Origin: Candidatus Parcubacteria bacterium
GTDB lineage: Bacteria; Patescibacteriota; Patescibacteriia; CAIXNZ01
DNA: 64,000 nucleotides
Reading direction: 5' to 3'
Assembly: GCA_026395685.1 (NCBI GenBank)
Contig: JAPLYG010000001.1
Span: 7,862-71,861, forward strand
Position 1 is the stretch's first letter; each line of letters begins with the position of its first letter. The notes beneath the pieces are model-generated. The model had not been told where the DNA came from. It saw only the letters and a program-made list of their open reading frames with translations, and did not search any database. The translations under genes and the position numbers were made by a program. Shown in pieces: positions 11,870 through 29,840 of this stretch.

Positions 11870-11890
11870 TAAGCTGGCGTTTTGCATAGG

Positions 11891-12253
11891 TTAGGCGTTT
11901 TTTCCCAAAGATTGCCTGACGAAATTTTCAAGCACATCGTCTTGCCACGGTTTGGGTGTAAAAAGTATTCCGCTGGGAGCCTCTCTTGCCTGAAGATTGC
12001 CTGAAATCAGTATCACGGGCAATGCCGGATAGGTCTCTTTTACTTTGGAAATCAATTCCAATCCTGTCATTCCCGGCATTTTATGGTCAGTGATCAGCAG
12101 GTCAAATTGTTGCTTTTGCAACAAGATTAAAGCCTTTTCCCCGCTTTCCGCCTGTATAAATTCAACCCCCAATTTCCTTAATGCGCGGCAAATGGCTTTA
12201 CGCACATATTCTTCATCGTCAACGAGCAAAATTTGCTTCTTGGCCTCACTCAT
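11891..12253 (-). CDS. Single-domain response regulator (CheY-like receiver), convergent with the histidine kinase
   Basis: 'ILLVDDEEYV', 'LLITDHKMPGMTGLEL' and 'VILISG'. Confidence 0.8.
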   Translation of the reverse strand: MSEAKKQILLVDDEEYVRKAICRALRKLGVEFIQAESGEKALILLQKQQFDLLITDHKMPGMTGLELISKVKETYPALPVILISGNLQAREAPSGILFTPKPWQDDVLENFVRQSLGKNA

Positions 12254-12518
12254 TTTAACCTCCTTTATAATTTAGAATCTTACAATAAATCTCTTGCCCC
12301 CGATATGGAGATATCTTAGTATGAATTAGATTATTTATCAACCCTAAAGCCTGGTAAAGTTGTCCTATCTGCAGTTATGAGTTTCGCAATTTATACGGGC
12401 AATAAAGGGTTAATAAATGCTTGAATTTTATTAGGAAAAACGGCTTTTTTTCGTTTGACTCAGCGCAATTTTAGGCGTAAAATAAGAATAAATTAGCTTA
12501 ATTTTAAACTTCTCAAAT

Positions 12519-15422
12519 ATGGACAAAAAGCACCAAATCTTAAGAACGCCACAAATAGACAGTGATATAACAGATTCTGCTAAAAACAAGCTGAAGAAAG
12601 GGCTTGTTAGTTTGGTTCAGAAATTCAAGGAAGAAGACGGCTGGTCAAAGTCTGAAGAACATGTTCAGACCAGCTTTACGATTAAGTTACTGGAATTGCT
12701 GGGCTGGGATAGTTCAAGCTGGAATATCAACCAAGGACAGGATGTTAAGACTGGCAAAAAGCCCGATATAGTTTTAAAATCAAGCACATCCAAACTTTTA
12801 GTTATTGAGTCTAAGGATGCCCACAAAAAAGACATGCTTGACGGAGCATATCAGACCAAAACTTTTGTAGAGCAGTTATTAAAATATTGTTCTGGTGAGG
12901 GTGTGGCCTGGGGCGTACTGACTAATTTCGTGGAATGGCGACTGTACAGCTTTTATCAGGGGCGATTATATAAAAACAAAAAGTATGCCTTTTATGATTT
13001 GCTTTGGCCGAACGCCAACAAAGAAGATTATATTGATTTGCTTTCAGAAGATGGTTTAAACTTCTTACTCAAGCTCTCTAAAAGTTTCTTACTGCAAACT
13101 CAGGGCAGAATTGATCAGGATACTATTTATTATCCAGTTCAGCAGGATTTGGGCGTGGAAAAAATAAAGAAAGAATTTTTTGAAAAGATTAAAGTTTGGC
13201 GGTCATCCTTGCGTAAATATTTATTAAAGAATTATCCTCGCATTGAGGCTGATGATATTGATTTATTAGCACAGAAAATTTTAGACCGCTTAATCTTCAT
13301 GGACATCTGCCATGACAAGCATGTAATTGGCGAAGACATTATTGGTCAGGTTAAGGAATCAAAGTTGCCCAAGTATCAGGAATTGAAACTCAAGTTTAAA
13401 CAGATGGATGATAAGTTTAATACCGAGCTTTTCACATTTAAAGATTACAGCCAAGTCAATGAAGAAGATATTAAGATCAATGACGAAGTTATCCTACCAA
13501 TAATCACAGACTTGATAGAAATTGATTTTTCTAAATTAAGCGTTCATATTATCGGCGAAGTTTACGAGAATTATTTGGGCGAATTGGCCAAGTCCAGAAC
13601 TACTGATTCCGCCTCCGCTAAAGCTTCGGCGGACAGGGAAAAGAAAATCAGCGATAAGCAGAAACAAAAACGAAAATCCCAGGGTATTTACTATACTCCC
13701 GATTACATTGTTGACTACATTGTGAAAAATACAATCGGTGAGATATTGAAACAGGCAAAAACTGTTGAAGAAATAGAAAAAATAAGAGTCATAGATCCTG
13801 CCTGTGGATCAGGTTCTTTCCTTATCAGAGCATTTGATGAGTTTTTAAATGCATATATGCGGGTTCACAGAGAAGGCGGTCTGTTTGCTTTTGAATTAAA
13901 AAAGAAAATCTTGCAGAAGAATCTGTTTGGGGTTGATTTGGATGCCAAAGCCGTGGAAATTACAAAGTTGAATCTGCTGATTAAGGCTTTGGATGGCACC
14001 AAACCTGAAGATCTTAAGGGTAAACACCTTTTGCCTAATTTAAACTTGAACATTCGCTGTGGTAATTCATTGATTGGCGGTGAAAAATTACAGGATAAAG
14101 AGCAAAGCTTAAATCTTTTTGATAATTATAAAACTGAAGTTAATAAATTAGCTGACTTAAAGATTAGTTTTTACAAAGAATCAGATGATCAGAAGAAAAA
14201 GGACTTGCTGACAGAAATTGGCACATTGGAAATGGTGATTAATAAAAATCTTAACGGTGGGTTGAGCAAATACTTCTCCAACTTATCAAAAGTTGATCCC
14301 TTTAATTATTTCGTCGCATTTTGTTAAATATTTAATGATGGTGGGTTTGACGCAATAATCGGTAATCCGCCATATGGAGCTGAACTGAATGATAATGAAA
14401 AGGAATTTTATGCTAATAATTTTGGGGTCGGTTCAACTGATACTGCAATCCTGTTTATCAAGCGTTCATTTGATATTTTAAAGGATGAAAGTAAATTCGG
14501 ATTTATTGTCCCTAAAGCTTTTTGTTTTGCCTCTAATTACGAAAAAATCAGGGATTATGTTTGGAATAATCTGGAACAGATTGTGGACTGCAATAAAGTA
14601 TGGAAAGAAGTCAAACTCGAACAGCTTATATTTATAATCAACAAAGAAAAGAAATCTAAAAAATACTTATCCGCTAATTTTAAGAATAAGCAATTAAACA
14701 TCCTCGGCGATATTGATAAATCCGATGCAAAAGAATTTGGTTTCTTTTTAAATAGTGTTTCACCCGACGAAGTTGAAATCGCTAAAAAGATAAAATCAAA
14801 TTCACTTATGCTTAATGATATTGCCACTAATCAGAGGGGTGCAATTTTACAAAAACATATTTCAGACAAGGGCGAACTTGAGGTTATTGGCGGAGCGCAA
14901 GTACAGAGATTTGGAATTGATGGGATTAAGGGTAAAATTGACAAGAGTAAAATAGACAATGATCAAGCTTATTTAAAAGATAATTCTGTCTTAGTCCAGA
15001 ATATTGTCGCTCATATAGAAAATCCTGTTGACCATATTTTAATTATTGCAGGAATACCTGAAAAAGCAGACTATATTTTAGTGGATACCGTAAATCAAAT
15101 AACTTTACAAAAAGAGTTCTCGCCTTATTTTATTTGGTGTCTTCTAAATTCTAAGATAATTAACTGGTATGCTTATAGGTTCATTTTTGGTAAAGCTATT
15201 AGAACTATGCATTTTGATAATTCAGTGACTGCACGATTGCCTATTCCTAAGGCCACGAAGCAGGAGAAAAATTTATTAATTCAAAAGGCAAAGGAATTCT
15301 TGAAATTGGTAAAACAGAACCCAAGTGAGGATAAAATAAATGCGGTTAATTACGAAATTGACAAGGTGGTTTATAATTTGTTCGGATTGACTGATAATGA
15401 AATTAATTTATTATTTAAATAA
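12519..15422 (+). pseudogene. Type IIG restriction-modification enzyme (MmeI/Eco57I-like: PD-ExK nuclease, gamma-class N6-adenine MTase, TRD) interrupted by one in-frame TAA at 14325-14327
   Basis: N-terminal 'PDIVLK...VIESK' nuclease core. MTase motif I 'IDPACGSGSFL' lies upstream of the stop, and motif IV 'GNPPYG' (14358-14378) lies downstream of it in the same frame. The reading frame continues to 15422. The ORF track splits this into 12519-14327 and 14583-15422. Confidence 0.6.
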
Positions 15423-15437: not shown

Positions 15438-16472
15438 ATGGATGACCGTAAAATACAAGAGATAAGAGAAGGATTACAAAGTTCTCATGTGAATTTTTTA
15501 TTTGGAGCGGGCTTGTCAACACCATATTTGCCATTGCTTGGCGATATTGAGATAAGATTATCAAGAGAAAGGAAATCCGCTGAAAGAATAAAGATAAAGA
15601 AGGAATACTTTGAAAAAGTCATGATCCCCAATTTAGAAATCATAAATAATGATATTACTAGTTCAAAACAGAATGATTTTAATATTACACAAAAAGCATA
15701 TAAAGATTTTTTTGAGCTTATTGGTCACATTTTACTTCACAGAAAAAATACTATTTTAAGTAAACAAGTAAATATCTTTACAACTAATATTGACATTCTA
15801 ATGGAAGTAGCATTAGAGGAACTTAACATGGAATACAATGATGGATTCTCTGGTAGACTAAATTCAGTTTTTAGTTTAAGTAATTTCAAGCGGTCTATTT
15901 TAAAACGAAGCTTGCACTATGAAAATGTATCGGAGGTGCCTATTTTCAATCTGGTAAAAATACACGGTTCCCTTACTTGGAAGAAAATTGAAGACAAGAT
16001 ATTTTTCTCTAAATTAACCCATTTTGATAAATCATTACTAAAAAAGTCTGGGAAAAAATTTGATGACAATTACAAAAAATTAGCAATAGTGAATCCTGAA
16101 AAGAAAAAACTTGAAGAAACCGTAATGGATCTGACTTATTATGAATTACTCAGAATGTATTCTAGTGAATTAGAGAAAGAAAATGTCATTTTATTTATTA
16201 TGGGTTTTTCAATGGAAGATGAACATATAAGAGAAATAACTATTAGGGGTGCTAATTCAAATCCCACATTAAAAATCTATCTTATTAGTCACGAAAAAGA
16301 TACTAATTTAGATCTGGCAAGAAAAATGGAAATCGGAAAATTGAGATATTCAAATATTGAAATAGTAGAACCTGAAGATGGAGAACAAAATAGCAAATTA
16401 AGTCTAACTGTAATTACAAAATTGATTTTCGAAAAAGTGGTTAAGAACATTGCTCATGACAACAAAGATTAA
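15438..16472 (+). CDS. SIR2-family NADase (defence-associated sirtuin) of a SIR2-HerA pair
   Basis: SIR2 signature motifs 'FLFGAGLST', 'FTTNIDILME' (TTNxD) and 'KIHGSL'. Confidence 0.8.
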   Translation: MDDRKIQEIREGLQSSHVNFLFGAGLSTPYLPLLGDIEIRLSRERKSAERIKIKKEYFEKVMIPNLEIINNDITSSKQNDFNITQKAYKDFFELIGHILLHRKNTILSKQVNIFTTNIDILMEVALEELNMEYNDGFSGRLNSVFSLSNFKRSILKRSLHYENVSEVPIFNLVKIHGSLTWKKIEDKIFFSKLTHFDKSLLKKSGKKFDDNYKKLAIVNPEKKKLEETVMDLTYYELLRMYSSELEKENVILFIMGFSMEDEHIREITIRGANSNPTLKIYLISHEKDTNLDLARKMEIGKLRYSNIEIVEPEDGEQNSKLSLTVITKLIFEKVVKNIAHDNKD

Positions 16473-18366
16473 TCCAATTGAAAAAGAATTAGTTAGGGAG
16501 TCAATTTTTATAATTGGACATGTTTTGTCTGTAGAGGGTAGGATTGTCAAAATTAAATTAAATAAAGATAAGAATCATTCCCACATACTGTACGAGGGTA
16601 AAACGGTAAAAAATGTTTCAGTTGGTGGTTATGTAAAAATCATTAAAGGTTTTGTTAGTATTATTGGTAAGGTTGAGGGAGAATATATTACTGAAGAAAA
16701 ATACATCAATAGAGAATATAACAAAGAAGAGATAAAAATAAATAGAATTTTGCAGGTTTCTCTTTTTGGTCATTTTGAAGGTGGTTGTTTTAGACAGGGT
16801 ATTAAAGAAATGCCACTTATTGATAACGAGTGTTATCTTTTAAATAGAGAAGAGTTCAACACCCTTCATCAGTTCTATAAAAATAGTCAGAAGTCGATAG
16901 TCATAGGAAGTTTAACAGAAGAACCTTCGCAAAAGATACGACTAGGTGTCAATAATTTATTTGCTAGTCACATAGGAATATTTGGCAATACAGGAAGTGG
17001 TAAATCAAACACATTAGCCAAAATTTACACTGAATTATTTATAGAATTTGATGATAACGAGGAGTTTAAAGCTAAATCTGATTTCGTGATTATTGATTTT
17101 AATGGTGAATATATAGGTAGGGATATAATTACCAATAATAAAACTGTTTACGAATTATCTACAGGTAAAGAAGGAAGTAAGAAAAAATATCCAATAACTA
17201 GAGAAAATCTTAATAAGGTTGAAGTGTTATCCGTTTTATTAGAAGCTACGGAAAAGACTCAAAAGCCTTTTCTGGATAGGGTTGTAAGAAATGATTACTT
17301 AAATGACGTCGATAAATTTAATAGTAGGGTAATTTCTGATATAGAAGATATTTGCAGAAACATTATTGACAAAAAAGACAAAAATATGCGAGAAGGAGTT
17401 GTGGTTGAGTTATTTGGACGAATTTCAGATTTAGTTTTAGATGAAAGTAAAGATGGGATAACAAATTTAAAAAAAGAAATTGAAAATAATTTGCATTTCT
17501 TTTCAGGTACTGGTGGTACCCCCGAATATTACTGGGCAAATTCCTCAGATTCAAATAATTTTAATAACAAGACACCAATTTATGATAATAAAATAAAAAC
17601 CGTAGTGGATGGTTTAAAATTTAAAAGTGATGAGTTTAGTAAATTAAAACTAAAGATTATACTCAATTATTTTCACGAGACTATTAAGGGATACTCAAAT
17701 CAGGAACACATTGCCCCTTTAATCGGCAGAACTTTTAGAAAATTCGATATGCTTGAAAAGTTAATTGAGATTAATGAAGAAGTAGACTCAAATAACTTAT
17801 CAATTGTTTGTTTGAGAAATGTAAATATTGAAATGAAAAAGATAATTCCTCTTATTGTTTCTAAGCAACTATACGAGAGGAAAAAAGAGATAAATGGGAA
17901 AAAATCATTGCATATCATTGTTGATGAAGCACATAATATTCTTTCAACGATGTCGCAAAGGGAAAGTGAAACATGGAAAGATTATCGCCTAGAAACATTT
18001 GAAGAAATAATTAAAGAAGGTAGAAAATTTGGTGTCTTTTTGACCATCGCAAGCCAAAGGCCATATGATATTTCCTCTACAATCATTTCTCAATTGCACA
18101 ATTATTTCATCCATAGACTAATTAATGATAATGATATTAATGCGGTTGAGAAGGCGGTTTCTTATCTTGATAAGCTATCATTTCAAACTATCCCAATATT
18201 ATCAGTTGGAAGTTGTTTTGTTGCTGGATTAGCTTCGGATATACCTATTAAAGTCGATATTGATCCACTGGAAAAAAACAAAAGACCAAAGAGCGAGACT
18301 GTTGATTTAGAAAATGCGTGGACAAAAATTTTGTCGCCAAATAATCGAAAATCAAGCAAACAATAG
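16450..18366 (+). CDS. HerA/DUF87-family ATPase partner of SIR2
   Basis: Walker A 'GNTGSGKSNTL'. Walker B 'LHIIVDEAHNI'. Size (638 aa) and 23-nt overlap with the SIR2 gene, typical of an operon. Confidence 0.8.
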   Translation: MLMTTKINPIEKELVRESIFIIGHVLSVEGRIVKIKLNKDKNHSHILYEGKTVKNVSVGGYVKIIKGFVSIIGKVEGEYITEEKYINREYNKEEIKINRILQVSLFGHFEGGCFRQGIKEMPLIDNECYLLNREEFNTLHQFYKNSQKSIVIGSLTEEPSQKIRLGVNNLFASHIGIFGNTGSGKSNTLAKIYTELFIEFDDNEEFKAKSDFVIIDFNGEYIGRDIITNNKTVYELSTGKEGSKKKYPITRENLNKVEVLSVLLEATEKTQKPFLDRVVRNDYLNDVDKFNSRVISDIEDICRNIIDKKDKNMREGVVVELFGRISDLVLDESKDGITNLKKEIENNLHFFSGTGGTPEYYWANSSDSNNFNNKTPIYDNKIKTVVDGLKFKSDEFSKLKLKIILNYFHETIKGYSNQEHIAPLIGRTFRKFDMLEKLIEINEEVDSNNLSIVCLRNVNIEMKKIIPLIVSKQLYERKKEINGKKSLHIIVDEAHNILSTMSQRESETWKDYRLETFEEIIKEGRKFGVFLTIASQRPYDISSTIISQLHNYFIHRLINDNDINAVEKAVSYLDKLSFQTIPILSVGSCFVAGLASDIPIKVDIDPLEKNKRPKSETVDLENAWTKILSPNNRKSSKQ

Positions 18367-18436: not shown

Positions 18437-19906
18437 ATGCCACACCAAATTATAAAATTTTCAGAATATTTTAATCTAAATAAGAGTCAGTACGAACTTG
18501 ATTTTGTTGATGTTCCTATAAATAATGGCGATGTGCCTTTATTTATTGATCCCTATGCAATATCTAAAAGAACTGATTATTGGTCAATTGAGTGTCATAA
18601 TGCAATCGTAGATTTCTTTCAATATTTAATTGATCAAATTAGCCAAGGCAACACTCAACAAGCCAGGAATGCTTTATCTGGTTTAAGGGAGCCAAATCAA
18701 ACCAGATTAGGCATGTCTACTGGAAATAAGCCAAGAGGACGAGGTATCGGGAATGAGCAATCTGAATTTTTATTTTTAGCATTATCAGAAAGCACCGCTG
18801 TAAGAACTGGATTCATAAAAGATCTAGAAGAATGTGAACTTTTAATTGAGGGTATTGGCCGTGATAAAATTTCCGATATAGCCACAAATATAATCAGACA
18901 TAAATTAATTGAGTATACTCAAATACAGTGTGAACTTTGGAATATCACATTAAACTCGGTTCCAAGTGGGATGACATGGAATCAAGATTTAAATGAATGG
19001 GAGAATGAATATGTTAATCTGCCAGTATGTAATTCTAATAGTGTTATTTTAATCCCAAAGGCAATAGCTAGATTTGATATTGAATTTGATTATCAAGAAT
19101 ATTATCAACACTTCGTATTGAATTTTCTTCAATCCGAAGAATTATCTGCAAATTCTTCACTGGTTAGAACTTTAAAAAATGGGACTAAAAAACCACCCTA
19201 CAAAAAAGCTTTAAAGGAAAAATATCCTTTAACCAAGAAATATCTTTATGAATTTTCTAAAGAGCACCCAGATATATTAAGTAATTATAAAACTAGCAAA
19301 GGCTATAATTTAAGAGAATTAAGCGTAGAGGATATTTTATTTTTCGCTTATAAACAAGAGACAAATAGAAGCATTGATTATAATACTTTAAAGAATAAGT
19401 TAAATACCATTCAAACTGGAGACTCAGCCGCTAATCAATATCATGATTATATTATAGGAGCGATGACGGCAATATTTTATCCTTACCTTATCAACCCTAA
19501 AAAAGAGCAGGAAATTCATGATGGAAGGAAAAGAATTGATATAGTATTCCAAAATTCAGCACATGACGGTTTCTTTTTTGAATTACCGAATACTAAATCG
19601 GTTCCGTCCGGGTATATATTTGTCGAGTGTAAGAATTACGCAAGTGATCCCGCCAACCCTGCATTGGATCAATTGTCTGGAAGATTTTCAACTAATAGAG
19701 GTAAATTCGGATTTTTAGTGTGTAGGTCATTTAGCAATAAAGATTTATTTATACAAAGATGCAAAGACACAGCACAAGATGATAGAGGTTTTATTGTCGC
19801 ACTAGACGACGATGACATTGAAAAGTTATTAGAATTTAGAAGTAATAATAATTATGCTGGCATTAATACTTTTTTAGATGATAGATTTAAAGAATTGGTA
19901 ATGTAA
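18437..19906 (+). CDS. Hypothetical protein with C-terminal PD-(D/E)xK nuclease-like core
   Basis: 'RIDIVFQN...GYIFVECKNY' (D...E-x-K) near the C-terminus. The N-terminal 330 aa are unrecognised. Confidence 0.4.
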   Translation: MPHQIIKFSEYFNLNKSQYELDFVDVPINNGDVPLFIDPYAISKRTDYWSIECHNAIVDFFQYLIDQISQGNTQQARNALSGLREPNQTRLGMSTGNKPRGRGIGNEQSEFLFLALSESTAVRTGFIKDLEECELLIEGIGRDKISDIATNIIRHKLIEYTQIQCELWNITLNSVPSGMTWNQDLNEWENEYVNLPVCNSNSVILIPKAIARFDIEFDYQEYYQHFVLNFLQSEELSANSSLVRTLKNGTKKPPYKKALKEKYPLTKKYLYEFSKEHPDILSNYKTSKGYNLRELSVEDILFFAYKQETNRSIDYNTLKNKLNTIQTGDSAANQYHDYIIGAMTAIFYPYLINPKKEQEIHDGRKRIDIVFQNSAHDGFFFELPNTKSVPSGYIFVECKNYASDPANPALDQLSGRFSTNRGKFGFLVCRSFSNKDLFIQRCKDTAQDDRGFIVALDDDDIEKLLEFRSNNNYAGINTFLDDRFKELVM

Positions 19907-19912
19907 TATAAT

Positions 19913-20329
19913 ATGCTTAAAGAATCACAAGTTGAAAATATTTTGAGAGGATACTTAATTAGTAAAGGATGGCGATTAACAAACTTGCCTAAAGGTATTG
20001 GTGAAGGTGGTATTGATATTAAAGGTTATCATCCTATTAAAAGGAAGGTTTTATTGGTAGAGGTTAAAGGTGACGGGAAAGCAAAGAATCAAACACTGCA
20101 TAATGGTTTTTACACTATTTTAGGCCAGATACTTTTTCGCATGGATAAACAAGGTAATGATCAGAAGAAGGCTAGAACCTATGCCTTAGCCATCCCTGCA
20201 AATTGGGAGGATGCGTTTACTAAGAAAATCAAACAAATGCCATACGGCTGGAGTTTATTGCGATTAAAAGTCTTTTTAGTTTCAAATAGAAGCGTTGAAG
20301 AAAAAAATTATAAATATTTTTTAAAATAA
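19913..20329 (+). CDS. Small PD-(D/E)xK-fold protein (YraN/Hjc-like mini-nuclease)
   Basis: 'ENILRGYLISKGWRL...GEGGIDIKGY...LLVEVKGDGKA' resembles the UPF0102/YraN layout. Starts 7 nt after the previous gene. Confidence 0.4.
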   Translation: MLKESQVENILRGYLISKGWRLTNLPKGIGEGGIDIKGYHPIKRKVLLVEVKGDGKAKNQTLHNGFYTILGQILFRMDKQGNDQKKARTYALAIPANWEDAFTKKIKQMPYGWSLLRLKVFLVSNRSVEEKNYKYFLK

Positions 20330-20342: not shown

Positions 20343-20540
20343 ATGCTCACCTCAAAAATCAAAGTCCTAAACGAAGAAAAAATTGCCAATATAATTTTGG
20401 ATTTAGAACGCGGGAAATTAAAAATTCCAAGATTTCAGCGTCAATTTGTTTGGGAGCGGTCAAAAATTATTAAACTTTTAGATAGCATCTATCAGGAGTT
20501 TCCGATCGGCAGTTTTTTCGGGGGAATGACTTGTGGATAA
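20343..20540 (+). pseudogene. Truncated DUF262 (GmrSD/ParB-like type IV restriction N-domain) fragment
   Basis: 'IPRFQRQFVWERSKIIKLLDSIYQEFPIG' is the DUF262 signature. The ORF stops after 65 aa, whereas intact family members are several hundred aa. Confidence 0.5.
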
Positions 20541-20613: not shown

Positions 20614-21564
20614 ATGCCGAAAACGAACTATTGGGATTTAACCAATAGGCCACATACAAAATTAAAACTGGAGATTTATGAAAAATACCTTAAGTCATGG
20701 TGCCAAATTTTTAAAAAACAGGCATGGGCTAAGGATGTTTTTATAGTAGATTGCTTTGCTGGTAAGGGCGATTACCTTGATAATGGCGCAATCGTGGATG
20801 GTTCTCCTCTCATAACCATAAAAACAGTTAAGGAAATTAATGAGGATTTTAAGAATAACAAAGTCAGGAATAAAGATTATTTTAAAATCAAATGTTTTTT
20901 TATTGAAGAAAATTCTGGTTATGCCAATAATTTAACTAAGCTTTTGGAGCCATATAAGAAGGATGTTGAATTTGAAATAATCAATGATGACTTCAATAAA
21001 GTAATCGCTAGGCTGGTAAAAGATATGGCAAATAAGCCGGCGTTATTTTTTATTGATCCCTATGGCATAAAAAGCGTGAATAAATCTAGCATCTTATCAG
21101 TTATTAATAAACCAGGGGCCAAAGATATTTTATTTAACTATATAAACGAAGGAGTCATCAGGATTGCTGGATTAGCCAAGAAAGTAATAACTAGAGACAT
21201 TGACGATATCACAGTCACGGAACTTAAAACAATAAAGCATTTGCAGAATTTTATTGGCGATAAGTTTTTAGAACTTATTGATAAAAATGACATAGAAATA
21301 CTTAAGTATTATGTTGATAATATTTTAAAAAGCAATAATAACGATACTGCCGGGAAAAATAATCTCGATGTAATCGGCTTTGACATGCCTTACCCCAATA
21401 AAAGCGATACGATTTATTATTTATTGTTTGCGTCAAGAAACAAACAGGCGATGAAAATCGTAAGCCAAGTATATGCTAACAGCAAAAAGGAAAACTTGCA
21501 GAAACAAAAAAGCCTTTTTGATTCTAAAGAGCAATTGAGAATACATAAGGATTTTAAGGTCTAA
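20614..21564 (+). CDS. Hypothetical protein, possible TcmP-like partner protein (MTase-like 'IVDCFAGKGDY')
   Basis: N-terminal 'FIVDCFAGKGDYLDNGAIVDGSPL' and 'LFFIDPYG'. Tight pairing with the downstream Cys-motif gene. The assignment is from memory of the family and not verified. Confidence 0.3.
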   Translation: MPKTNYWDLTNRPHTKLKLEIYEKYLKSWCQIFKKQAWAKDVFIVDCFAGKGDYLDNGAIVDGSPLITIKTVKEINEDFKNNKVRNKDYFKIKCFFIEENSGYANNLTKLLEPYKKDVEFEIINDDFNKVIARLVKDMANKPALFFIDPYGIKSVNKSSILSVINKPGAKDILFNYINEGVIRIAGLAKKVITRDIDDITVTELKTIKHLQNFIGDKFLELIDKNDIEILKYYVDNILKSNNNDTAGKNNLDVIGFDMPYPNKSDTIYYLLFASRNKQAMKIVSQVYANSKKENLQKQKSLFDSKEQLRIHKDFKV

Positions 21565-21599
21565 GTATAAATATGATATAATTAAAACATATAAATCCC

Positions 21600-22439
21600 A
21601 TGCAAAAAATAACCAGAAAATCTCTTTTATATAAAAGCGGTGTTGAATACGCTGATTTTTGCATTAATCATGTAGAGGGATGCTCTCATGGCTGTAAGTT
21701 TCCTTGCTATGCCATGATGATGAAAAAACGATGTGGGGTAATTAAGACTTATAGCGACTGGATCCAACCTAAAATAGTAAGCAACGCCCTGGAATTACTT
21801 GATAAGGAAATCCCCAGGTTGAAACATAAGATTAAAGTAGTTCATCTTTGTTTCACAACTGACCCTTTTATGTATAAACAGCCGGAGATTACAGATTTAA
21901 CTTTGAAAATTATTGAGAAGTTAAATGCTAATGGCATCAGATGCACGGTATTGACTAAAGGAATTTATCCTAAAGAATTGGCAGACACTACGAAATATAG
22001 TCCCAGCAATGAATATGCCGTAACTTTGGTTTCTCTGAATAAAAATTTCAAGGAGCAATTTGAGCCTGGCACAGCTCCTTACGAATCAAGAATAAACGCT
22101 TTAAAATATCTGCATGACAGTGGATTAAACACCTGGGTCAGTATGGAGCCTTATCCAACCCCTAATTTAGTCAGGCAAGACCTGGAGAAAATATTGGAGA
22201 AAATAGATTTTGTCGACAAGATAATTTTTGGCAAATTAAATTATAATGTTAAGGTTACCCAATTCCAAGATAATAAAGATTTTTATGATAATTGCGCCAG
22301 TGTTGTTACAGATTTTTGCACTCAAAATAATATAAGCTATCATATTAAATACGGCACGGCAAAAAAAGATAATTTTAAAACAGAGAAAATTTTCAAAGTT
22401 GCGAGCTGTAATTTAGATCCTGTAACTTTTAATGTTTAA
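21600..22439 (+). CDS. COG1533/spore-photoproduct-lyase-like Cys-motif protein (variant 'GCSHGCKFPCYA')
   Basis: 'NHVEGCSHGCKFPCYAMM' resembles the 'GCxHGCxYCYA' radical-SAM-type motif of SplB-like DNA repair lyases, but with CX3CX3C spacing. Confidence 0.4.
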   Translation: MQKITRKSLLYKSGVEYADFCINHVEGCSHGCKFPCYAMMMKKRCGVIKTYSDWIQPKIVSNALELLDKEIPRLKHKIKVVHLCFTTDPFMYKQPEITDLTLKIIEKLNANGIRCTVLTKGIYPKELADTTKYSPSNEYAVTLVSLNKNFKEQFEPGTAPYESRINALKYLHDSGLNTWVSMEPYPTPNLVRQDLEKILEKIDFVDKIIFGKLNYNVKVTQFQDNKDFYDNCASVVTDFCTQNNISYHIKYGTAKKDNFKTEKIFKVASCNLDPVTFNV

Positions 22440-22485
22440 ATATAACTAAAAAAGAGACGATTTAAACGCCTCTTTTTTGTTTTAA

Positions 22486-23946
22486 CTATATTTTTTCTAA
22501 AAACTTTAATATCTCCACCATGGCCATTGTATCCATAAAGCAATAATCCAGCATATCCCTATAAAGTTTATCTTTTTCTTTTTTATCAATATCATGATCA
22601 ATCAAGGTTTTCCAACTATCAGAAGCAGTCCCGCCTTCCTGAATATTTAAATCCTTGTAGGACAATTTGGGAATCAATACGGGCAATACCTTTTTAATAG
22701 ATGCGCTCCCGTGGAAATTCTTATGGACATAATAGCCTTTGCGGAAAATGAGCATTAGATCGTACATTGAATCATTGACTGATTTTAAGAACATAGCATA
22801 TTGCGGAGCCCGTTTTGCCATTTCACTGTTACAGCCCTTTTCAAACATCGCATTCCATGAAATGGCAGTGCCTTTCTTAGATATAAATTTTCTAAGAGCT
22901 TTTAATAAATCTTCAGTCGGATCTTTAAAGTCTTTGGCCAGAAATTCATAATGATTCAGCTTTCCGCCCGGCTTTTCCTGCACATGCAGGGAAAACTGAA
23001 AGACAATGCGCTGATAGGGCTTGTAGCCGTCAAAAAGCGGGATAGCAGGGCTGAATGTCTCGTAATCAAGGAAATAGAGCGGATATTTGAGGTTACTTAG
23101 GTCTTCTTTGATGTTTTCTGGTTCAATATGGACTTTGTTATGCTTAACCACATGTCGGTGCATTAAAGCTCGGTCTCTGGTCAAAAAGTCCTCGGGAACG
23201 TCCTTAATTTCTAAAATATCCTGATCTAGGAGCTCATTTAGCTTTTTCTCGCTTAATCCGCAGGCAATGCTGTAAATTGAGTGGTCTGGCACGTCTTTCC
23301 AGCAGTAATCAATGAATGGGCATTCATAGGGACTATTACATTGCTTTAAGATCCTTATTTGGGGTTCTTTGGGAGATTTGATAAGTTTAAGAGCGGATTC
23401 AATGTTTAGCTTGGTTTCGCTGATCAGATTTCTGACATCAGAAGTAATATCCTCAATCTTTAATAATTTTTTAGGATCAATTTCGCCTTTTCTTACATAG
23501 CTGGTATTGATTACAACCAAATGGGTTTTACCGATTTTATAACCTGCAGATTCAAAACAGACTTTCTGGAAGGACAAGTCAATGATATGGATATCTTTGA
23601 CCTGGGTTGAACTTTTAACTTCGTAAATATCCCACTTGTCTCCGTTCTTAACAAAAATATCAGCCATTGCGTAAAGGCTATTGGCCATGGCAGTGGCTTG
23701 AAAAATAACTTTATTGCCGTCTTTGATCAGTTTGTCAGTATTTTTCTTGGCGGTTTCATAAAGCCCCTCTGCCTTAACTCCCTTAGGAAATAATTTGCGA
23801 GCATAATCTTCAACTTCATAACCTTCGTCAAATATTCTTTGCAATGATTCATCTGTTTCTTCAGGCAACAAATCACGGCGGAATTTATACAGCCAAAGGT
23901 ATTTGTAGCACTGGATATATTTTAGGAATTGGGATTTGGATAGCAT
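22486..23946 (-). CDS. DUF2779-like protein with N-terminal Cas4/RecB-like PD-(D/E)xK nuclease domain
   Basis: 'SKSQFLKYIQCYKYLWL' and 'MADIFVKNGDKWDIYEVKSST' (D...E-x-K), plus a long C-terminal domain. Confidence 0.4.
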   Translation of the reverse strand: MLSKSQFLKYIQCYKYLWLYKFRRDLLPEETDESLQRIFDEGYEVEDYARKLFPKGVKAEGLYETAKKNTDKLIKDGNKVIFQATAMANSLYAMADIFVKNGDKWDIYEVKSSTQVKDIHIIDLSFQKVCFESAGYKIGKTHLVVINTSYVRKGEIDPKKLLKIEDITSDVRNLISETKLNIESALKLIKSPKEPQIRILKQCNSPYECPFIDYCWKDVPDHSIYSIACGLSEKKLNELLDQDILEIKDVPEDFLTRDRALMHRHVVKHNKVHIEPENIKEDLSNLKYPLYFLDYETFSPAIPLFDGYKPYQRIVFQFSLHVQEKPGGKLNHYEFLAKDFKDPTEDLLKALRKFISKKGTAISWNAMFEKGCNSEMAKRAPQYAMFLKSVNDSMYDLMLIFRKGYYVHKNFHGSASIKKVLPVLIPKLSYKDLNIQEGGTASDSWKTLIDHDIDKKEKDKLYRDMLDYCFMDTMAMVEILKFLEKI

Positions 23947-23961: not shown

Positions 23962-25029
23962 TTAACGCAGTTTCTTCAAAACATCCATAACCCCCGACTT
24001 CTCTAATTCAAGTAGAGAATTGTAAATAAAAGTTATTGCCTTTTTTTCTCCACCCTTAATGAATTCGGGGAATGCCATTTCTTTTAAATATGGCCAATGA
24101 ATATCGTTCGGTTGTTTTACGAAAAATGTCTTATCGATTTTCTGCGGTTTTATATTTTTAAACTTTTCAGCGAATTCTTTTTTCCAGATAGCGATACATT
24201 GATAGTAATAAAGTCCATTCGTATAATTTTTTTCATCTATATATAAAGCGAAGCCTAATTCAATCCGTTTAAACCAACTCCATTCGTTTCTGCCAAAAAA
24301 TAAATAGAACAACATGTTGTCACTGCTGAATTTTGGGGTATTGCGTGTCACTTGCAATTTATGTTTCTTTAAAAATCCGATAATCCTTTTGTCTTTGTAA
24401 ATCTGTTTTAAAAAGGCAATTAGTTTTTTATTAAAGCCCAGGAAATTTGTTTTGGAAAGGGCGATGTCTTTCTTATCAAAACCCTGAAATGGTTGCATAT
24501 CTAATTCTTTCATGAATTTTAAAAAATTAGTAATAAAATATTTATTGGTTTTATTAATCTTATTATTATGAAAATAATCGTCCAAAAGATTATAGACCTC
24601 AAACCATTCAAATTGTCCTAGGAATTTGTCGATATTACTTTTAACTTGTATACTGCCCTGATCTTTCGTTATAAAACAAACAAAACCTTTATTCATTCGT
24701 AGATATTTTTCAACTTGTCCAAAATCATCCTCTGTAGCGTCGTCATAATAACGGTTTTCATGAGCATTGACTTTAATTTCAATAAATATTTTCTTATAGT
24801 TTTTATCAGTAACCTGCAAATCAATTATTGAATTGCCATATCTGACTTGGCTTTCTAAGGTAAAAGGAGCTTTAAATACCTGATCGTTACTGATATATTT
24901 TACAAATTTATTTAGAAGATCTGCATCAAGAGAAAGTATGATTTTTAAGCTTTCAGTAAAAAAATTCTCCGCAGGAGTCATTCCCGGCTGAGGCTTGTAT
25001 CTATATAAGGTAGAAAAAATATTTTCCAT
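23962..25029 (-). CDS. PD-(D/E)xK nuclease-superfamily protein (hypothetical), first gene of a two-gene minus-strand operon
   Basis: 'GNSIIDLQVTDKNYKKIFIEIKVNAHE' core. The likely start is Met 'MENIFSTLYR' at 25029 rather than the extended ORF start at 25080. Confidence 0.35.
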   Translation of the reverse strand: MENIFSTLYRYKPQPGMTPAENFFTESLKIILSLDADLLNKFVKYISNDQVFKAPFTLESQVRYGNSIIDLQVTDKNYKKIFIEIKVNAHENRYYDDATEDDFGQVEKYLRMNKGFVCFITKDQGSIQVKSNIDKFLGQFEWFEVYNLLDDYFHNNKINKTNKYFITNFLKFMKELDMQPFQGFDKKDIALSKTNFLGFNKKLIAFLKQIYKDKRIIGFLKKHKLQVTRNTPKFSSDNMLFYLFFGRNEWSWFKRIELGFALYIDEKNYTNGLYYYQCIAIWKKEFAEKFKNIKPQKIDKTFFVKQPNDIHWPYLKEMAFPEFIKGGEKKAITFIYNSLLELEKSGVMDVLKKLR

Positions 25030-25046
25030 ATAATAGGTGAAATTTT

Positions 25047-25083
25047 TGGGAAAACAAAAAGGGTCCCACGTCGGTGGCACCCT
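25047..25083 (-). terminator. Hairpin plus U-run immediately upstream of the 23962-25029 start (leader attenuator or terminator of an upstream sRNA)
   Basis: Minus strand reads 'GGGTGCCACCGACGTGGGACCC' followed by 'TTTTTGTTTT', about 20 nt before the ATG. Confidence 0.4.
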
Positions 25084-25782
25084 TTCGGGCGCCCAACAAC
25101 CTTTCGGATGTTGACCATTCGCATAGTGCCGATCATGAGACCGTCTTTATGCGAATGGATTTGAGCGACCATGCCCCAAGGAGGAATCCTTGGGGGTTAG
25201 GTCCAAATTGTATGAAATTATTCATATCATACCTTAAAAAATGGTTGCTGTAAAGCGGGGTTACCGACAGTTTATCTACTCGGGTTTCAGCAAAAAGTTA
25301 TCCACAATTTAATTTTTGACTTACAAAATCACAAAATTATAACATATCTGATTTTGCTTAATCTTAGATGAATTTTCATGGTTGACTTACGAGATGTAAT
25401 TATCTGAAAAACACGATTATAAACTTGACGGAACTGCTAGTTAAGCTATAATTAATGTAACAGTTCTTGTGACTAGCTCTTCGAAAACTTAATATCAGCA
25501 ATAAGATATAAGATTTTATAACTAATTAACATTTAAGTTCGGTTTTAAAAAGGAAAAAATCTATAACCCTAATAAAAGGTTTTAGGTTTGAAGTTAAAAT
25601 ATAAGATTTAAAATTAAAATTCTAAAAAAGTTCCAGTCATTTAATATCCCTATAAGATATTAAATTTAATTTTAAACAATCCAGCAATGGGTATATTTTA
25701 ACAACAGACTTAAGGCCTTTTTTTGTTAAAAGCTATCCCCATTGAGGATAGCTTTTTAATTATTTATAATTAATTTTATTTT

Positions 25783-27054
25783 ATGCAAAACTCAGCCAAA
25801 TTAAAAATAGAGTCAATTCCTATTGCTGAACTTAAGGTGGATATTTACAATCCCAGAATCCACACGCCAGAAGCAATAAGCCAGCTAAAAGAGTCAATTA
25901 AAAAGTTCGGCGAAATTTCGCCAATAGTGGCTAATAGTGCTCCCAACAGGAAAAATATTGTAATTTCGGGGCACATGAGAATAAAAGCCTGCTTAGAGTT
26001 AGGGCTTAAGGAAATACCGACAATTTTTGTGAACATCCCCGACATTAATCGAGAAAAAGAATTAAATCTTCGCATGAACCGTACTGGCTCATGGGATTAT
26101 GAACTTCTTAAGAGTTTTGACTTAAATGTCCTTTTGGATGTTGGGTTCGATAACAGTGATTTATCTTTGATATGGGATCAGAACTTGGAAACTGAAGATG
26201 ACAGTTTTGATGTAGAAACGGAATTAAAAGAGATTAAGAAAACAGACATAAAAGTTGGAGATTTATTCCAGATTGGATCTCATAGGATTTTGTGCGGTAA
26301 TTCATTGGATCTTTCAGCAGTAAAAGGGCTTATGGGCGGTAAAAAGACAAGGATGATATATACCGATCCGATCTACAACATCTCTCTGGATTATAACTTG
26401 GGGATTTCTCAGAAACAAAATTATGGCGGACAAACTAATGACAAGAAAACCGATGCTGAATACAAAGAATTTCTGAAAGGAGCTATTTCTAATGGATTGG
26501 CGGTTTCTGAAAAGGATTTACATGTGTTTGTTTACTGTGACCAAAGATATATTGGTTTAATTCAAGATCTTTATCATGAGCTTGGGATAAAGAACCAAAG
26601 GGTCTGCCTTTGGATTAAGAATGGATTTAATGTAACTCCACAAATAGGTTTTAATAAATCATATGAGCCTTGTGTTTATGGAACAATGGGAACGCCTTTT
26701 CTTTCAGACATAAAGAACTTAAGTGAAATTTTAAACAAGGAAATCGGCACAGGAAACAGAACAATTGATGACATCATGGACTTGTTGGATATTTGGCTGG
26801 TTAAACGTTTGCCAGGCCAAGATTACACACACGCCACAGAGAAGCCAACAACTCTCCATGAAAAAGCAATAAAAAGATGTACATCTCCTGGCGATATTAT
26901 TTTAGATCTATTCGCTGGTTCGGGATCAGCCATTATTAGTAGTGAACAACTTAAGCGAGTATGTTACGCCGTCGAGATTGAACCTATCTTCGTACAACTA
27001 ATTATTAACAGGTTTGAAAAATATGCAAACATCAAAGCAAAAAAGCTCAATTAA
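25783..27054 (+). CDS. ParB-N domain fused to beta-class N4/N6 DNA methyltransferase
   Basis: ParB-like 'ISGHMRIKAC'. MTase motif IV 'MIYTDPIYN' precedes motif I 'ILDLFAGSGSAII...YAVEIEP'. Confidence 0.75.
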   Translation: MQNSAKLKIESIPIAELKVDIYNPRIHTPEAISQLKESIKKFGEISPIVANSAPNRKNIVISGHMRIKACLELGLKEIPTIFVNIPDINREKELNLRMNRTGSWDYELLKSFDLNVLLDVGFDNSDLSLIWDQNLETEDDSFDVETELKEIKKTDIKVGDLFQIGSHRILCGNSLDLSAVKGLMGGKKTRMIYTDPIYNISLDYNLGISQKQNYGGQTNDKKTDAEYKEFLKGAISNGLAVSEKDLHVFVYCDQRYIGLIQDLYHELGIKNQRVCLWIKNGFNVTPQIGFNKSYEPCVYGTMGTPFLSDIKNLSEILNKEIGTGNRTIDDIMDLLDIWLVKRLPGQDYTHATEKPTTLHEKAIKRCTSPGDIILDLFAGSGSAIISSEQLKRVCYAVEIEPIFVQLIINRFEKYANIKAKKLN

Positions 27055-27793
27055 ATATGGTGACATTTTTACGCTAGGCGAACATCTTTTATGTTGCGGA
27101 AATTGTACAGATACGGAATTAGTAAAGAGGTTATTGGGCAATAATAAAATTAAATTAATTTTGGCGGATGTGCCGTATGGCGTGAATTTTACCCAATCAA
27201 AAGAAAGTTTATTGAAAAAAGAGACAAAGCATAAAGATATTGTCGGTGATGAAGATCAAAGCGACGAAAAATACAGTTCCTTCACCCGAGAATGGCTAGA
27301 AGCGATTAAACCTTATTTGGAAAGGAAAAATGCCTTCTATATTTTTAATTCAGATAAGATGATTTTTTCACTCAGACAAGGGATTGAGAATGCTGGTTAC
27401 AATTTTGGGCAGCTTCTAATTTGGGTGAAGAGTCAGGCTGTAATCGGACGAAAGGATTATCTTCCCATGCATGAGCTTATTGCATACGGATGGTGTGGTA
27501 CTCATGAATTTATGAAAAGTAAGGCGAAAAGCGTGCTCTTTTATCCTAAACCTCAAAACAACAATCTTCATCCGACAATGAAACCAATCAGTTTGTTAAG
27601 AGATTTGATTTTGAATAGCACAAGGATTGGTGACATTGTTTATGATGGATTCGTTGGGTCTGGGTCAACTATTTTAAGTTGTGAGCAAACTAAGAGAAAA
27701 TGTTTTGCTTTTGAGATCGAACCCGACTATTGCCGAGTTATTCTTGAGAGATTCGAGAAATTAACAGGCATTAAACCTAAAAAACTAACTTAA
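27014..27793 (+). CDS. Beta-class DNA methyltransferase (phage-type orphan MTase)
   Basis: 'LILADVPYG' (DPPY variant) and 'VYDGFVGSGSTIL...FAFEIEP'. Confidence 0.75.
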   Translation: MKNMQTSKQKSSIKYGDIFTLGEHLLCCGNCTDTELVKRLLGNNKIKLILADVPYGVNFTQSKESLLKKETKHKDIVGDEDQSDEKYSSFTREWLEAIKPYLERKNAFYIFNSDKMIFSLRQGIENAGYNFGQLLIWVKSQAVIGRKDYLPMHELIAYGWCGTHEFMKSKAKSVLFYPKPQNNNLHPTMKPISLLRDLILNSTRIGDIVYDGFVGSGSTILSCEQTKRKCFAFEIEPDYCRVILERFEKLTGIKPKKLT

Positions 27794-27797
27794 TACT

Positions 27798-28205
27798 ATG
27801 AAAGATCTAAAAACTAAAGAGTTATTTCTAGACCAGCTTAAGAAGACCCCAATAATTCAGGTCTGTTGTGAAAAAACTGGCATCAGCAGAGCAACACTTT
27901 ATCGCTGGAAAGCAAAGGATAAGGGTTTTGCTGAAAAATTAGATAAAGCCTTAGGCGAAGGCACTGAATTGGTAAATGATTGCGCTGAAAGCATGTTAAT
28001 TTCAGCTATTAAGGATAAAAACATGACGGCCATCACCTACTGGTTAAAAAATAAGTGTCCTGGATATATGCCTAAGCTGGAATTGTCGGGCAAAGTAAAA
28101 GTGGAAAACGAGGCTCTGTCCGAAGAACAGAAGTCTCTAATCAAGAAAGCCCTTGAGCTTTCTGGCTTAAATATTAATGATCCTAAATATGATAAGTACA
28201 AATAA
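27798..28205 (+). CDS. Phage terminase small subunit-like HTH protein
   Basis: 'KTGISRATLYRWKAKDKGFAEK'. Sits directly upstream of and overlapping the terminase large subunit. Confidence 0.5.
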   Translation: MKDLKTKELFLDQLKKTPIIQVCCEKTGISRATLYRWKAKDKGFAEKLDKALGEGTELVNDCAESMLISAIKDKNMTAITYWLKNKCPGYMPKLELSGKVKVENEALSEEQKSLIKKALELSGLNINDPKYDKYK

Positions 28206-29760: not shown

Positions 29761-29840
29761 TTATCAACAATGCCTCCTGGACTCAGCAAAGCCGTTGCGT
29801 CATCCCTTGTCTTAGGTAATAACTATTAACCTTAAGACCT

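Follow-up and report, generated by a model that had tools for sequence, protein, structure and literature searches.

The locus examined here raises the question of what two adjacent genes do in a bacterial genome, one coding for a TcmP-like protein and the other for a radical-SAM (rSAM) protein with an unusual cysteine motif. They lie in a 64,000-nucleotide stretch of Candidatus Parcubacteria bacterium (assembly GCA_026395685.1, contig JAPLYG010000001.1, positions 7,862 to 71,861), referred to in full as the window. An earlier sequence-only reading had paired a TcmP-like gene with one resembling spore photoproduct lyase (SPL) and COG1533 proteins, had placed them between a GmrSD remnant and nuclease genes, and had suggested a DNA-modification or defence-type module. 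Both genes are present as claimed, the strings that it quoted are exact, and the flanking genes are those described. The features are as follows (coordinates in the window, strand, description).

20343-20540, + strand: truncated GmrSD (DUF262) N-terminal fragment, 65 aa, PF03235; outside the cassette
20614-21564, + strand: TcmP gene (gene A), 316 aa; class-I SAM-methyltransferase fold; short form that lacks the wHTH at the C terminus
20743-20775, + strand: TcmP motif I IVDCFAGKGDY, SAM-binding glycine-rich loop; exact in translation
21046-21069, + strand: TcmP motif IV-like segment FFIDPYGI; from translation
21600-22439, + strand: SPL-like radical-SAM gene (gene B), 279 aa
21678-21713, + strand: rSAM cluster motif GCSHGCKFPCYA; exact in translation, C28-X3-C32-X3-C36
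21843-21872, + strand: rSAM segment HLCFTTDPFM, after strand beta-2; from translation
22448-22478, strandless: strong bidirectional terminator-like hairpin, 12-bp stem with T-runs on either side
22486-23946, convergent to the rSAM gene: DUF2779/Cas4-like nuclease, from family search

Locus organization and the two encoded proteins

The two genes are on the same strand and are separated by 35 nt (open reading frame check), and the rSAM gene and the convergent nuclease gene have their stop codons on either side of the hairpin. The GmrSD fragment matches PF03235 with 43.4 bits over model positions 7-47 of 199 only, and stops ahead of the DGQQR motif. A promoter scan of the locus gave 21 sites with 18.6 expected from shuffled sequence, and is no better than shuffled.

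The upstream product matches TIGR04474 with 135.8 bits (cut-off 53) over model positions 1-261 of 263, in agreement with its initial description as a TcmP-like protein with a methyltransferase-like IVDCFAGKGDY segment. In motif I, D46 is present in all 81 sequences compared, and C47 (76), F48 (79), A49 (80), G50 (80), G52 (80) and Y54 (76) are conserved in nearly all of them. In the motif IV-like segment D148 and P149 are both 81/81 and G151 is 71/81, with position 150 occupied by Y (32), D (16), F (13), C (6), G (4) or W (4). Motifs II (E98) and III (D126) are conserved as well, and because motifs I, II and III are all retained it is plausible that TcmP binds SAM. Motif IV has the form DP-x-G, a residue fewer than the DPPY found in RlmJ and other amino-methyltransferases. 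With this form, and with a position 150 that is not consistently aromatic, TcmP may be a SAM binder that lacks methyl-transfer activity. Conservation is confined to the methyltransferase motifs, a pattern like that among DNA methyltransferases of differing specificity. Long forms of TcmP have a C-terminal wHTH domain that the window protein lacks. Comparison of predicted structures points to the RNA methyltransferases RlmJ and Trm1 as the nearest relatives, and the match list is headed by nucleic-acid rather than small-molecule methyltransferases. A profile search against PDB sequences returned nothing significant (RlmJ at E 1.3), and an hhalign comparison with Escherichia coli RlmJ was not significant (probability 12.5%).

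The downstream product matches PF04055 (Radical_SAM) with 56.7 bits (gathering score 29.5) over model positions 1-165 of 166, which bears out its proposed radical-SAM identity. Its predicted model has the partial TIM-barrel core fold of radical-SAM proteins, with SPL as the closest fold on structure comparison. TIGR04070 (SPL) is absent among NCBIfam matches at E up to 0.01, a profile search against PDB sequences gave nothing significant (SPL at E 0.6), and a Foldseek search of viral structures (BFVD) gave generic radical-SAM matches only. The protein scores below the cut-offs for DUF5131 (PF07505; 22.9 vs 28.9 bits, N-terminal half only) and for the PA0069 and Rv2578c COG1533 equivalogs (49.1 vs 360 and 50.5 vs 430 bits respectively), and has zero matches to PADLOC models even at E ≤1. 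Conservation across a 255-residue core is strong (2.87 bits per column). The two proteins of the pair are both basic, the median pI values being 8.1 and 8.7.

The CX3CX3C cluster motif

The rSAM protein had been described as one residue off the GCxHGCxYCYA motif, and the difference is an inserted residue, Pro35, between the conserved aromatic and the third cysteine. The subfamily motif is GCxHGCx[Y/F]PCYA, and the spacing is CX3CX3C rather than the CX3CX2C that is canonical for the radical-SAM superfamily. Conservation of the cysteine motif among homologues had been set as a test beforehand, and 119 of the 120 closest homologues have CX3CX3C, P0023 alone departing from it through a Ser in place of the first Cys. 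In a 110-sequence alignment extending down to 40% identity, C28, H30, G31, C32, P35, C36 and A38 are all 110/110, and position 34 is always aromatic (Y in 74 and F in 36). Judging from these alignments, the longer spacing is conserved well beyond chance and the Pro35-containing motif is under strong purifying selection.

Across the broader family, 84 of 106 informative clusters at 50% identity have the Pro-insert motif and the remaining 22 have the canonical GCxHGCxYCYA, the two differing by a clean indel of a single residue. The two forms are interspersed at about 50% identity, with 11 of the 22 canonical proteins nearest to a Pro-insert protein, and a neighbour-joining tree contains 11 motif-state changes, a count that is indicative only, the tree being star-like. 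This interspersion argues that the canonical and Pro-insert forms are functionally equivalent. A metagenome search with the canonical P0139, whose locus is a solo gene, recovered Pro-insert relatives only.

Conservation extends to the segment that follows a strand at residues 80-83 of the predicted model, where Cys84 is near-invariant (106/110) and D88, P89, F90 and M91 are all 110/110. We take the Cys84 segment to be placed much like the SPL segment bearing the hydrogen-atom-donor cysteine. Tyr37 is present in 105 of the 110 sequences, and Cys84 and Tyr37 may correspond to the radical-relay residues of SPL, which they resemble by sequence position with the register one residue off. Text matches to 'CX3CX3C' in the literature correspond to a probable NifB typographical error and to a peptide substrate motif.

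Pairing, mobility and genomic context

The two genes form a self-contained, mobile cassette and are obligately paired. In a census of homologue neighbourhoods, proposed with the original reading, 214 loci extend far enough to include a neighbour, and 198 of them have TcmP beside rSAM (72/75 in genomes, 64/68 in viral and 62/71 in metagenome sets). Intergenic gaps are mostly between -4 and +76 nt, and P0121 and P0127 are TcmP-rSAM fusion proteins; a few rSAM copies without TcmP exist, and a conserved third gene, sought across the loci, was not found. DNA similarity between loci ends at the cassette boundaries. The GmrSD fragment and cassette flanks of the window do not recur in other loci, and no insertion signature was found. 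The cassette crosses domains, occurring in CPR bacteria, DPANN archaea, Clostridia and prophages, and the family numbers in the thousands (roughly 6,650 homologues) over these bacterial, archaeal and prophage hosts; close homologues are all but absent from collections of isolate phages and plasmids. The partners evolve at markedly different rates, with a median pairwise identity of 59% for rSAM and 19% for TcmP (rho 0.10), and among 902 locus pairs in which rSAM is ≥70% identical, TcmP is <30% identical in 619.

Defence genes in the window include a split type IIG restriction-modification (R-M) gene, SIR2-HerA, PDC-M36A, the GmrSD remnant and the Cas4-like nuclease. Neighbours at other loci include MmeI/type IIG, ResIII, SNF2 and NYN genes, and those in prophages include repressors, integrases, DNA methyltransferases, GmrSD and type I R-M genes. 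Also among the prophage neighbours are a type III Mod-like gene, directly downstream of the cassette at no fewer than 16 loci, and, at other loci, a serine integrase, these neighbour counts being raw, with related loci included and no background set. The type III Mod-like gene is followed by a gene of ~980 aa for which a PDB sequence search gave no match. The surroundings of the cassette are usually R-M genes, repressors or integrases, yet most of the immediate neighbours are non-defence genes. A role in defence or counter-defence is likely because the cassette adjoins R-M systems and the repressor and integrase accessory regions of prophages; the DNA-modification or defence type of reading first offered is supported, although the role itself is one that we infer.

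Proposed activity and relation to known systems

Our preferred reading, held tentatively and at a little under an even chance, is that this mobile operon encodes a two-subunit nucleic-acid-modifying enzyme acting in genome conflicts; cluster binding, complex formation, DNA as the substrate, the reaction chemistry and the phenotype are all elements of it that we infer. TcmP probably binds SAM, has a methyltransferase fold akin to that of RlmJ, evolves fast and is exchanged between cassettes; it would be the targeting or specificity subunit and possibly itself a methyl donor. The rSAM protein would hold a [4Fe-4S] cluster through C28, C32 and C36 despite Pro35, and would cleave SAM reductively to give a 5'-deoxyadenosyl radical, which would abstract a hydrogen atom from a base that TcmP presents, most likely a DNA base. 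A base modification would thereby be installed, elaborated or removed, and the biological role would be defence or counter-defence via the modification state of DNA. In a more specific and rather doubtful version, the cassette would be a novel type of enzyme that acts on the modification state of DNA in concert with R-M systems. The hypervariable TcmP would pick the DNA site, and the universal rSAM engine would either write a new hypermodification or strip a phage of its protective methylation, exposing it to cleavage by the restriction enzymes nearby; no earlier radical-SAM family would have been shown to function with a change in the second half of the motif (CX3CX3C).

Several other activities can be considered for the pair. 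TcmP could target rRNA or tRNA and rSAM modify an RNA base, possibly leading to resistance to a toxin aimed at ribosomes or tRNA, or to altered translation during infection, and RNA is a serious alternative substrate given that RlmJ and Trm1, the closest structural relatives of TcmP, are RNA methyltransferases. We nonetheless regard this as unlikely: a universal RNA target predicts a conserved TcmP, whereas TcmP is hypervariable and swapped between cassettes, SPL and the phage relative gp53 act on DNA, the R-M genes prominent among the neighbours are DNA-directed, and some TcmPs have a wHTH domain. Hypervariability is also hard to square with a tailoring enzyme for a fixed metabolite, as in a viperin-like system in which rSAM acts on a free nucleotide or other metabolite to yield a product, antiviral or toxic, that TcmP methylates or otherwise tailors. 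Such a system is improbable, in that the structural match of rSAM to SPL is clearly the better one (19.4 vs 15.1), the protein carries SPL/COG1533 motifs, and the top structural matches of TcmP are to enzymes acting on nucleic acids.

There is likewise only a small chance that the cassette is a DNA-repair module with no role in conflict, in which an SPL-like lyase reverses a lesion and TcmP is a lesion-recognition or accessory subunit. The closest fold of rSAM and the positions of Cys84 and Tyr37, similar to those of the SPL radical-relay residues, are in keeping with repair, and other COG1533 genes turn up in papers on the LexA/SOS regulon. Vertical inheritance in a stable setting is the norm for repair genes, however, whereas the cassette crosses domains without conserved flanks and turns up in R-M clusters and in the accessory regions of prophages; moreover, the housekeeping COG1533 member (PA0069 family, by RNase HII) is a different protein without TcmP, and a hypervariable partner is ill-suited to recognition of a fixed lesion. 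Least probable is a degenerate fold, in which the extra proline blocks cluster and SAM binding and leaves a non-radical scaffold or binding protein. In its favour, no solved structure is known to have CX3CX3C spacing, and in the RadicalSAM.org catalogue every motif variant retains the terminal CX2C and the first spacing alone changes. Against this, the three cysteines, Pro35 and the flanking G, H, G and A residues are invariant within a strongly conserved core, the interspersed canonical members imply the same function, and the PF04055 gathering score is still exceeded.

Within the radical-SAM motif, the CX2C half is commonly regarded as nearly invariant, and if our inferences hold, a conserved CX3CX3C family among canonical members is a natural experiment on the tolerance of the SAM-binding cluster loop. 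The family could also add new DNA or RNA chemistry, and its conserved engine with a hypervariable, swappable partner beside type IIG, III and I R-M systems would be a candidate defence or counter-defence system, one missed by current detection tools because PADLOC recognises the TcmP half only. Consisting of two small genes, the cassette is readily testable in a heterologous host.

Among known systems, the TcmP and DUF5131 ('phage Gp37/Gp68') pairs, PDC-M30 and PDC-M41 in PADLOC, share the upstream partner family with the window pair, and the window TcmP matches their component A (PDC-M30A, E 2.8e-26; PDC-M41A, E 1.4e-16). They likewise consist of two genes and include a three-cysteine protein of the SPL-related radical-SAM branch; in RadicalSAM.org, DUF5131 is in Megacluster-5-2 and SPL beside it in 5-3. 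All are mobile and defence-associated, with putative functions. The DUF5131 motif is CX6CX2C and not CX3CX3C, and since the window rSAM matches no PADLOC model, PADLOC would not call the pair; weak matches to PDC-M41B and M30B (2.3e-7 and 1.4e-6) are confined to its canonical sisters, P0131 and P0139. The literature on TcmP, its partner families and SPL-like defence yielded only passing mentions or unrelated systems (e.g. Ophion).

RlmJ, the 23S rRNA m6A2030 methyltransferase (PF04378), differs from TcmP in that TcmP has neither a significant sequence-profile relationship to it nor DPPY, and the stretch from motif I to GSPLIA is 9 residues in TcmP and about 50 in RlmJ. The best NCBIfam matches of rSAM (E 1e-13 to 7e-12) are PA0069 and Rv2578c (COG1533 'DNA repair photolyase') and the radical SAM mobile pair (TIGR04470/04471), which share a GCxHxCxYCYA-type motif and a TDP[F/Y] motif with it; scores are 45-50 bits, with cut-offs of 360-430. 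The PA0069 member examined is a housekeeping gene adjoining RNase HII, without TcmP. A match on a Sinorhizobium plasmid (H38) considered as a TcmP/DUF5131 locus was rejected, being this housekeeping PA0069 enzyme beside RNase HII.

SplB (PDB 4fhc) is only 15% identical to the window rSAM, which is ~60 residues shorter (279 vs 340 aa), and unlike SplB the window protein has the extra proline and an obligate methyltransferase-fold partner, and is mobile, with no link to sporulation. The gp53 protein of phage M6 is an SPL-like radical-SAM isomerase of a thymidine hypermodification, shown to act on a base in DNA in the course of phage-host conflict (PMC8989533), and it and SPL are the only radical-SAM enzymes cited in that literature as acting on DNA bases. 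It has a canonical CX3CX2C motif (CTVGCAFC) in contrast to the CX3CX3C of the window rSAM, and its genomic setting, in which TcmP is absent, is a multi-gene cluster for 5-hmdU hypermodification that also encodes kinase, transferase and PLP enzymes. Compared by description only, gp53 provides a functional precedent for the mechanism proposed here for the cassette.

A conserved TcmP–rSAM gene pair

The TcmP gene (three-Cys-motif partner protein, TIGR04474) and the gene for an SPL-like (spore photoproduct lyase-like) radical-SAM protein, here rSAM, lie 35 nt apart on the same strand. Each protein has a 100% identical NCBI entry from a Candidatus Parcubacteria (CPR) metagenome-assembled genome.

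20614–21564, + strand, TcmP ORF, 316 aa
21600–22439, + strand, rSAM ORF, 279 aa
22448–22478, strong bidirectional hairpin 3' of the pair, common to the convergent gene

The pairing is conserved across three collections of homologous loci, where an iterative HMM search of the upstream ORFs identified TcmP.

TcmP next to rSAM in three collections of loci
Reference genomes: 80 loci, 75 with room for a neighbor; TcmP adjacent in 72 (68 directly upstream on the same strand)
IMG/VR viral contigs: 70 loci, 68 with room for a neighbor; TcmP adjacent in 64
Metagenome contigs (Pro-insert form): 78 loci, 71 with room for a neighbor; TcmP adjacent in 62

This census of homologous pairs, proposed in the sequence-only reading, places TcmP beside rSAM in 198 of 214 loci with room for a neighbor. 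Intergenic gaps in the reference-genome loci are mostly -4 to +76 nt, and the two genes are fused in P0121 (634 aa), whose N-terminal half scores 170.7 bits on TIGR04474, and in P0127 (592 aa). The loci share no conserved third gene (the commonest neighbor family occurs in 6 of 80 genome loci), and nucleotide similarity between them is confined to the TcmP and rSAM genes, which form one unit. The few TcmP-less rSAM copies lie in phage DNA-metabolism contexts or amid small phage-like ORFs. Two such phage loci (L084, 8768–10093; L147, 4849–6063) have a C5-cytosine-type DNA methylase (motif ELFAGIGS or DLFAGGGG) adjacent or close to the unpaired rSAM gene, a hint that another methylase might stand in for TcmP.

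Homologs at 56–81% identity are found in many CPR lineages and DPANN archaea (Woese-, Pace- and Micrarchaeota), as well as in Clostridia, Planctomycetota, Actinomycetes, Methanomicrobia and others. The two proteins, one with the fold of a SAM-binding nucleic-acid methyltransferase and the other with that of an SPL-like radical-SAM enzyme, are co-inherited, sometimes fused, and mobile. The two genes differ strongly in rate: among 128 complete pairs the median pairwise identity is 59% for rSAM (5–95% range, 52–74%) and 19% for TcmP (15–44%), and the two distance matrices correlate weakly (Spearman rho 0.10). Where rSAM is at least 70% identical (902 locus pairs), TcmP falls below 30% in 619. Information content is 1.35 bits per column for TcmP versus 2.87 for rSAM, with TcmP conserved only at its methyltransferase motifs and rSAM uniformly over residues 1–255. 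This is what a constant, putatively catalytic core combined with a swappable and diversifying partner would look like, and it resembles DNA methyltransferases of differing specificities.

Families, folds and the CX3CX3C motif

The window TcmP has no match in Pfam but matches the A components of two PADLOC candidate systems (PDC-M30A, E 2.8e-26; PDC-M41A, E 1.4e-16). Its AlphaFold2 model, built like the column statistics from 81 homologs, is very confident (pLDDT 94.4, pTM 0.92). Conserved columns include motif I (D46-C-F-A-G-x-G-x-Y54, with D46 in 81/81), an acidic residue past strand 2 (E98; E in 70 and D in 11 of 81), D126 (69/81), a GSP motif (G63, S64, P65) and an N-terminal K18 (80/81), elements that would be expected for SAM binding. 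In motif IV, D148 and P149 (each 81/81) are followed by Y, D, F, C, G or W and then G151, so that the segment falls one residue short of the DPPY found in amino-methyltransferases. Although the fold and two short motifs of TcmP are RlmJ-like, we place the protein outside the RlmJ family because the profile comparison is not significant (E 1.3; hhalign probability 12.5%). TcmP proteins fall into length classes of about 280, 310 and 360–400 aa; the long forms have ~70 extra C-terminal residues, which in some members match the Pfam 'GMT-like wHTH' domain, and the window protein is a short form.

The rSAM protein passes the Pfam Radical_SAM model (56.7 bits, cut-off 29.5) and scores below threshold for DUF5131 (PF07505; 22.9 versus 28.9 bits). 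Its best NCBIfam matches, to the COG1533-type families Rv2578c and PA0069 and to 'radical SAM mobile pair protein B', reach 45–50 bits against far higher cut-offs of 360–430, and PADLOC gives no match even at E ≤1. By those families' own models it is outside SPL, PA0069, Rv2578c and DUF5131. An alignment of 110 sequences, in which close homologs are joined by more remote ones with identities as low as 40%, has invariant segments including TDPFM (D88–M91) and E155-P-G-x-A-P...R164, which we take to be typical of the SPL/COG1533 branch. C84, C115 and C240 are near-invariant (each 106–107 of 110); the window protein also has C21 and C45, which are unconserved. The AlphaFold2 model from 110 sequences is a radical-SAM barrel (pLDDT 91.1), and JGI annotates many homologs as 'DNA repair photolyase'. 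The earlier descriptions of the first protein as MTase-like at its N-terminus and of the second as SPL/COG1533-like are borne out, the latter as a statement of likeness; the Cys motif and IVDCFAGKGDY quoted there match the window translation exactly.

The Cys motif in the window (G-C28-S-H-G-C32-K-F-P35-C36-Y-A) has CX3CX3C spacing, and its conservation among homologs, on which the sequence-only reading had staked its assignment, holds. The pattern is present in 119 of the 120 closest homologs (identity ≥70%), the sole exception being P0023, in which Ser replaces the first Cys. C28, H30, G31, C32, P35, C36 and A38 are invariant in all 110 aligned sequences, and only Y or F occurs at position 34. 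When 1.84 billion cluster representatives were searched exhaustively, 941 clusters matched at E ≤1e-10; among the best 150 of these, 106 include the N-terminus, of which 84 have the Pro-containing CX3CX3C and 22 the canonical GCxHGCxYCYA (CX3CX2C). The two forms differ by a clean single-residue indel and are not two deep clades, at least 11 changes being needed on a weak neighbor-joining tree; independent of topology, the nearest relative of 11 of the 22 canonical proteins is a Pro-insert protein rather than another canonical one. In the metagenome scan the canonical P0139 is a singleton, and all 78 other complete relatives carry the insertion. We conclude that the Pro insertion is the majority state of the subfamily, strongly selected and interconverting with the canonical motif, which argues that the Pro-insert motif would still support cluster binding. 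The RadicalSAM.org survey includes variants of the first spacing (CX4 to CX11 before CX2C; DUF5131 is CX6CX2C) and none of the second. The two literature matches to 'CX3CX3C' are irrelevant.

Defense and mobile-element surroundings

In the window the pair sits in a defense island.

12519–14327 and 14583–15422, + strand, split type IIG R-M gene
15438–16472, + strand, SIR2 (PADLOC E 2.1e-60)
16450–18366, + strand, HerA (PADLOC HerA E 5.9e-177)
18437–19906, + strand, PDC-M36A homolog, 489 aa (PADLOC E 1.2e-49)
20343–20540, + strand, GmrSD (DUF262) fragment, first 65 residues, immediately upstream of TcmP
22486–23946, - strand, DUF2779/Cas4-like nuclease, convergent with the pair
23962–25080, - strand, 372-aa ORF, no family match
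25076–25203, - strand, LOOT RNA (Rfam RF03000; 80.9 bits, gathering score 46.4)
25783–31352, prophage-like block: ParB-N6/N4 methylase fusion, second methylase, terminase-like ORF (weak Terminase_6N match), further ORF
31278–31352, - strand, tRNA-Glu, at the end of the prophage-like block

The first type IIG ORF (602 aa) has HSDR_N, N6_Mtase and MmeI_Mtase domains and the second (279 aa), separated from it by 255 nt, weakly matches the TaqI_C specificity domain; the gene may be disrupted or decaying. SIR2 overlaps the HerA start by 23 nt, giving a SIR2-HerA defense system. Downstream of the PDC-M36A homolog comes a 138-aa ORF without matches (region 18437–20329); neither of the two matched Pfam or NCBIfam. 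As the sequence-only reading had placed it, the pair lies between a GmrSD_N remnant (5') and a nuclease (3'). The truncated GmrSD does not recur in the other loci compared; GmrSD genes of full length do border the pair in 4 cases on viral contigs. The defense island may be a mobile-element remnant integrated beside tRNA-Glu.

On the - strand, the LOOT RNA lies directly 5' of the 372-aa ORF, followed by the nuclease, in the direction of the pair; the arrangement could represent an operon headed by a structured RNA and convergent with the pair. GC content is 0.45–0.50 at 44001–50000, where a 1299-aa ORF lies (43785–47684), and at 56001–58000, versus 0.29–0.40 elsewhere in the window, in which an rRNA search detected none; the high-GC stretches may represent a segment of different composition or one that was acquired.

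In cellular genomes the immediate neighbors are heterogeneous, most frequently MmeI-type and N6 methylases, Eco57I, ResIII, DEAD and SNF2 helicases, NYN and Fic. Viral and prophage contigs have Cro/CI-type repressors, integrases, invertases, N6/N4 DNA methylases, GmrSD, T5orf172 and type I R-M. In at least 16 of these loci the gene directly downstream encodes a type III Mod-like methylase (Mbo45V, E 6.5e-29; EcoP15I Mod, 1.6e-21), followed in 9 by a ~980-aa protein that has no PDB sequence match and is possibly a divergent Res subunit; in other loci it encodes a large serine integrase. A recurrent prophage block (L103, L107, L109, L110, L114, L123, L132, L134 and related IMG/VR loci, at about 5900–13800) has the order N6/N4 methylase (~380 aa), TcmP, rSAM, type III Mod-like methylase (~700–814 aa), and in 22–26 loci a divergent pair of genes for a ~235-aa and a ~650-aa protein (phrog_4031) lies upstream. 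Collections of isolate phages and plasmids contain almost no close homologs. These raw counts, which ignore kinship of loci and carry no background rate, for that reason support rather than prove an association with defense and mobile-element regions.

Proposed function and relation to known systems

We propose that TcmP and rSAM would form a complex in which C28, C32 and C36 of rSAM hold a [4Fe-4S] cluster and generate a 5'-deoxyadenosyl radical, with TcmP recognizing the target and perhaps transferring a methyl group. The substrate would be a base in DNA, a proposal based on SPL itself, on the DNA-directed neighboring genes and on gp53 of phage M6, which is SPL-like and alters a thymidine hypermodification carried by DNA (PMC8989533). 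TcmP and rSAM are both basic, with median pI values of 8.1 and 8.7. RNA is the main alternative because the nearest folds of TcmP are RNA methyltransferases, although a universal RNA target would fit poorly with the hypervariability of TcmP. Viperin-like nucleotide chemistry, a role in housekeeping repair, or a dead enzyme would each be less likely than action on DNA or RNA.

Both genes already bear database names ('TcmP' and 'radical SAM protein'), and TcmP with a DUF5131-like partner is a PADLOC candidate. The SPL-like partner subfamily appears to be undescribed, as do the CX3CX3C motif conserved within it, the strong difference in rate between the two genes together with the swapping of partners, and the systematic occurrence of the pair next to R-M systems and to prophage genes for integration or immunity.
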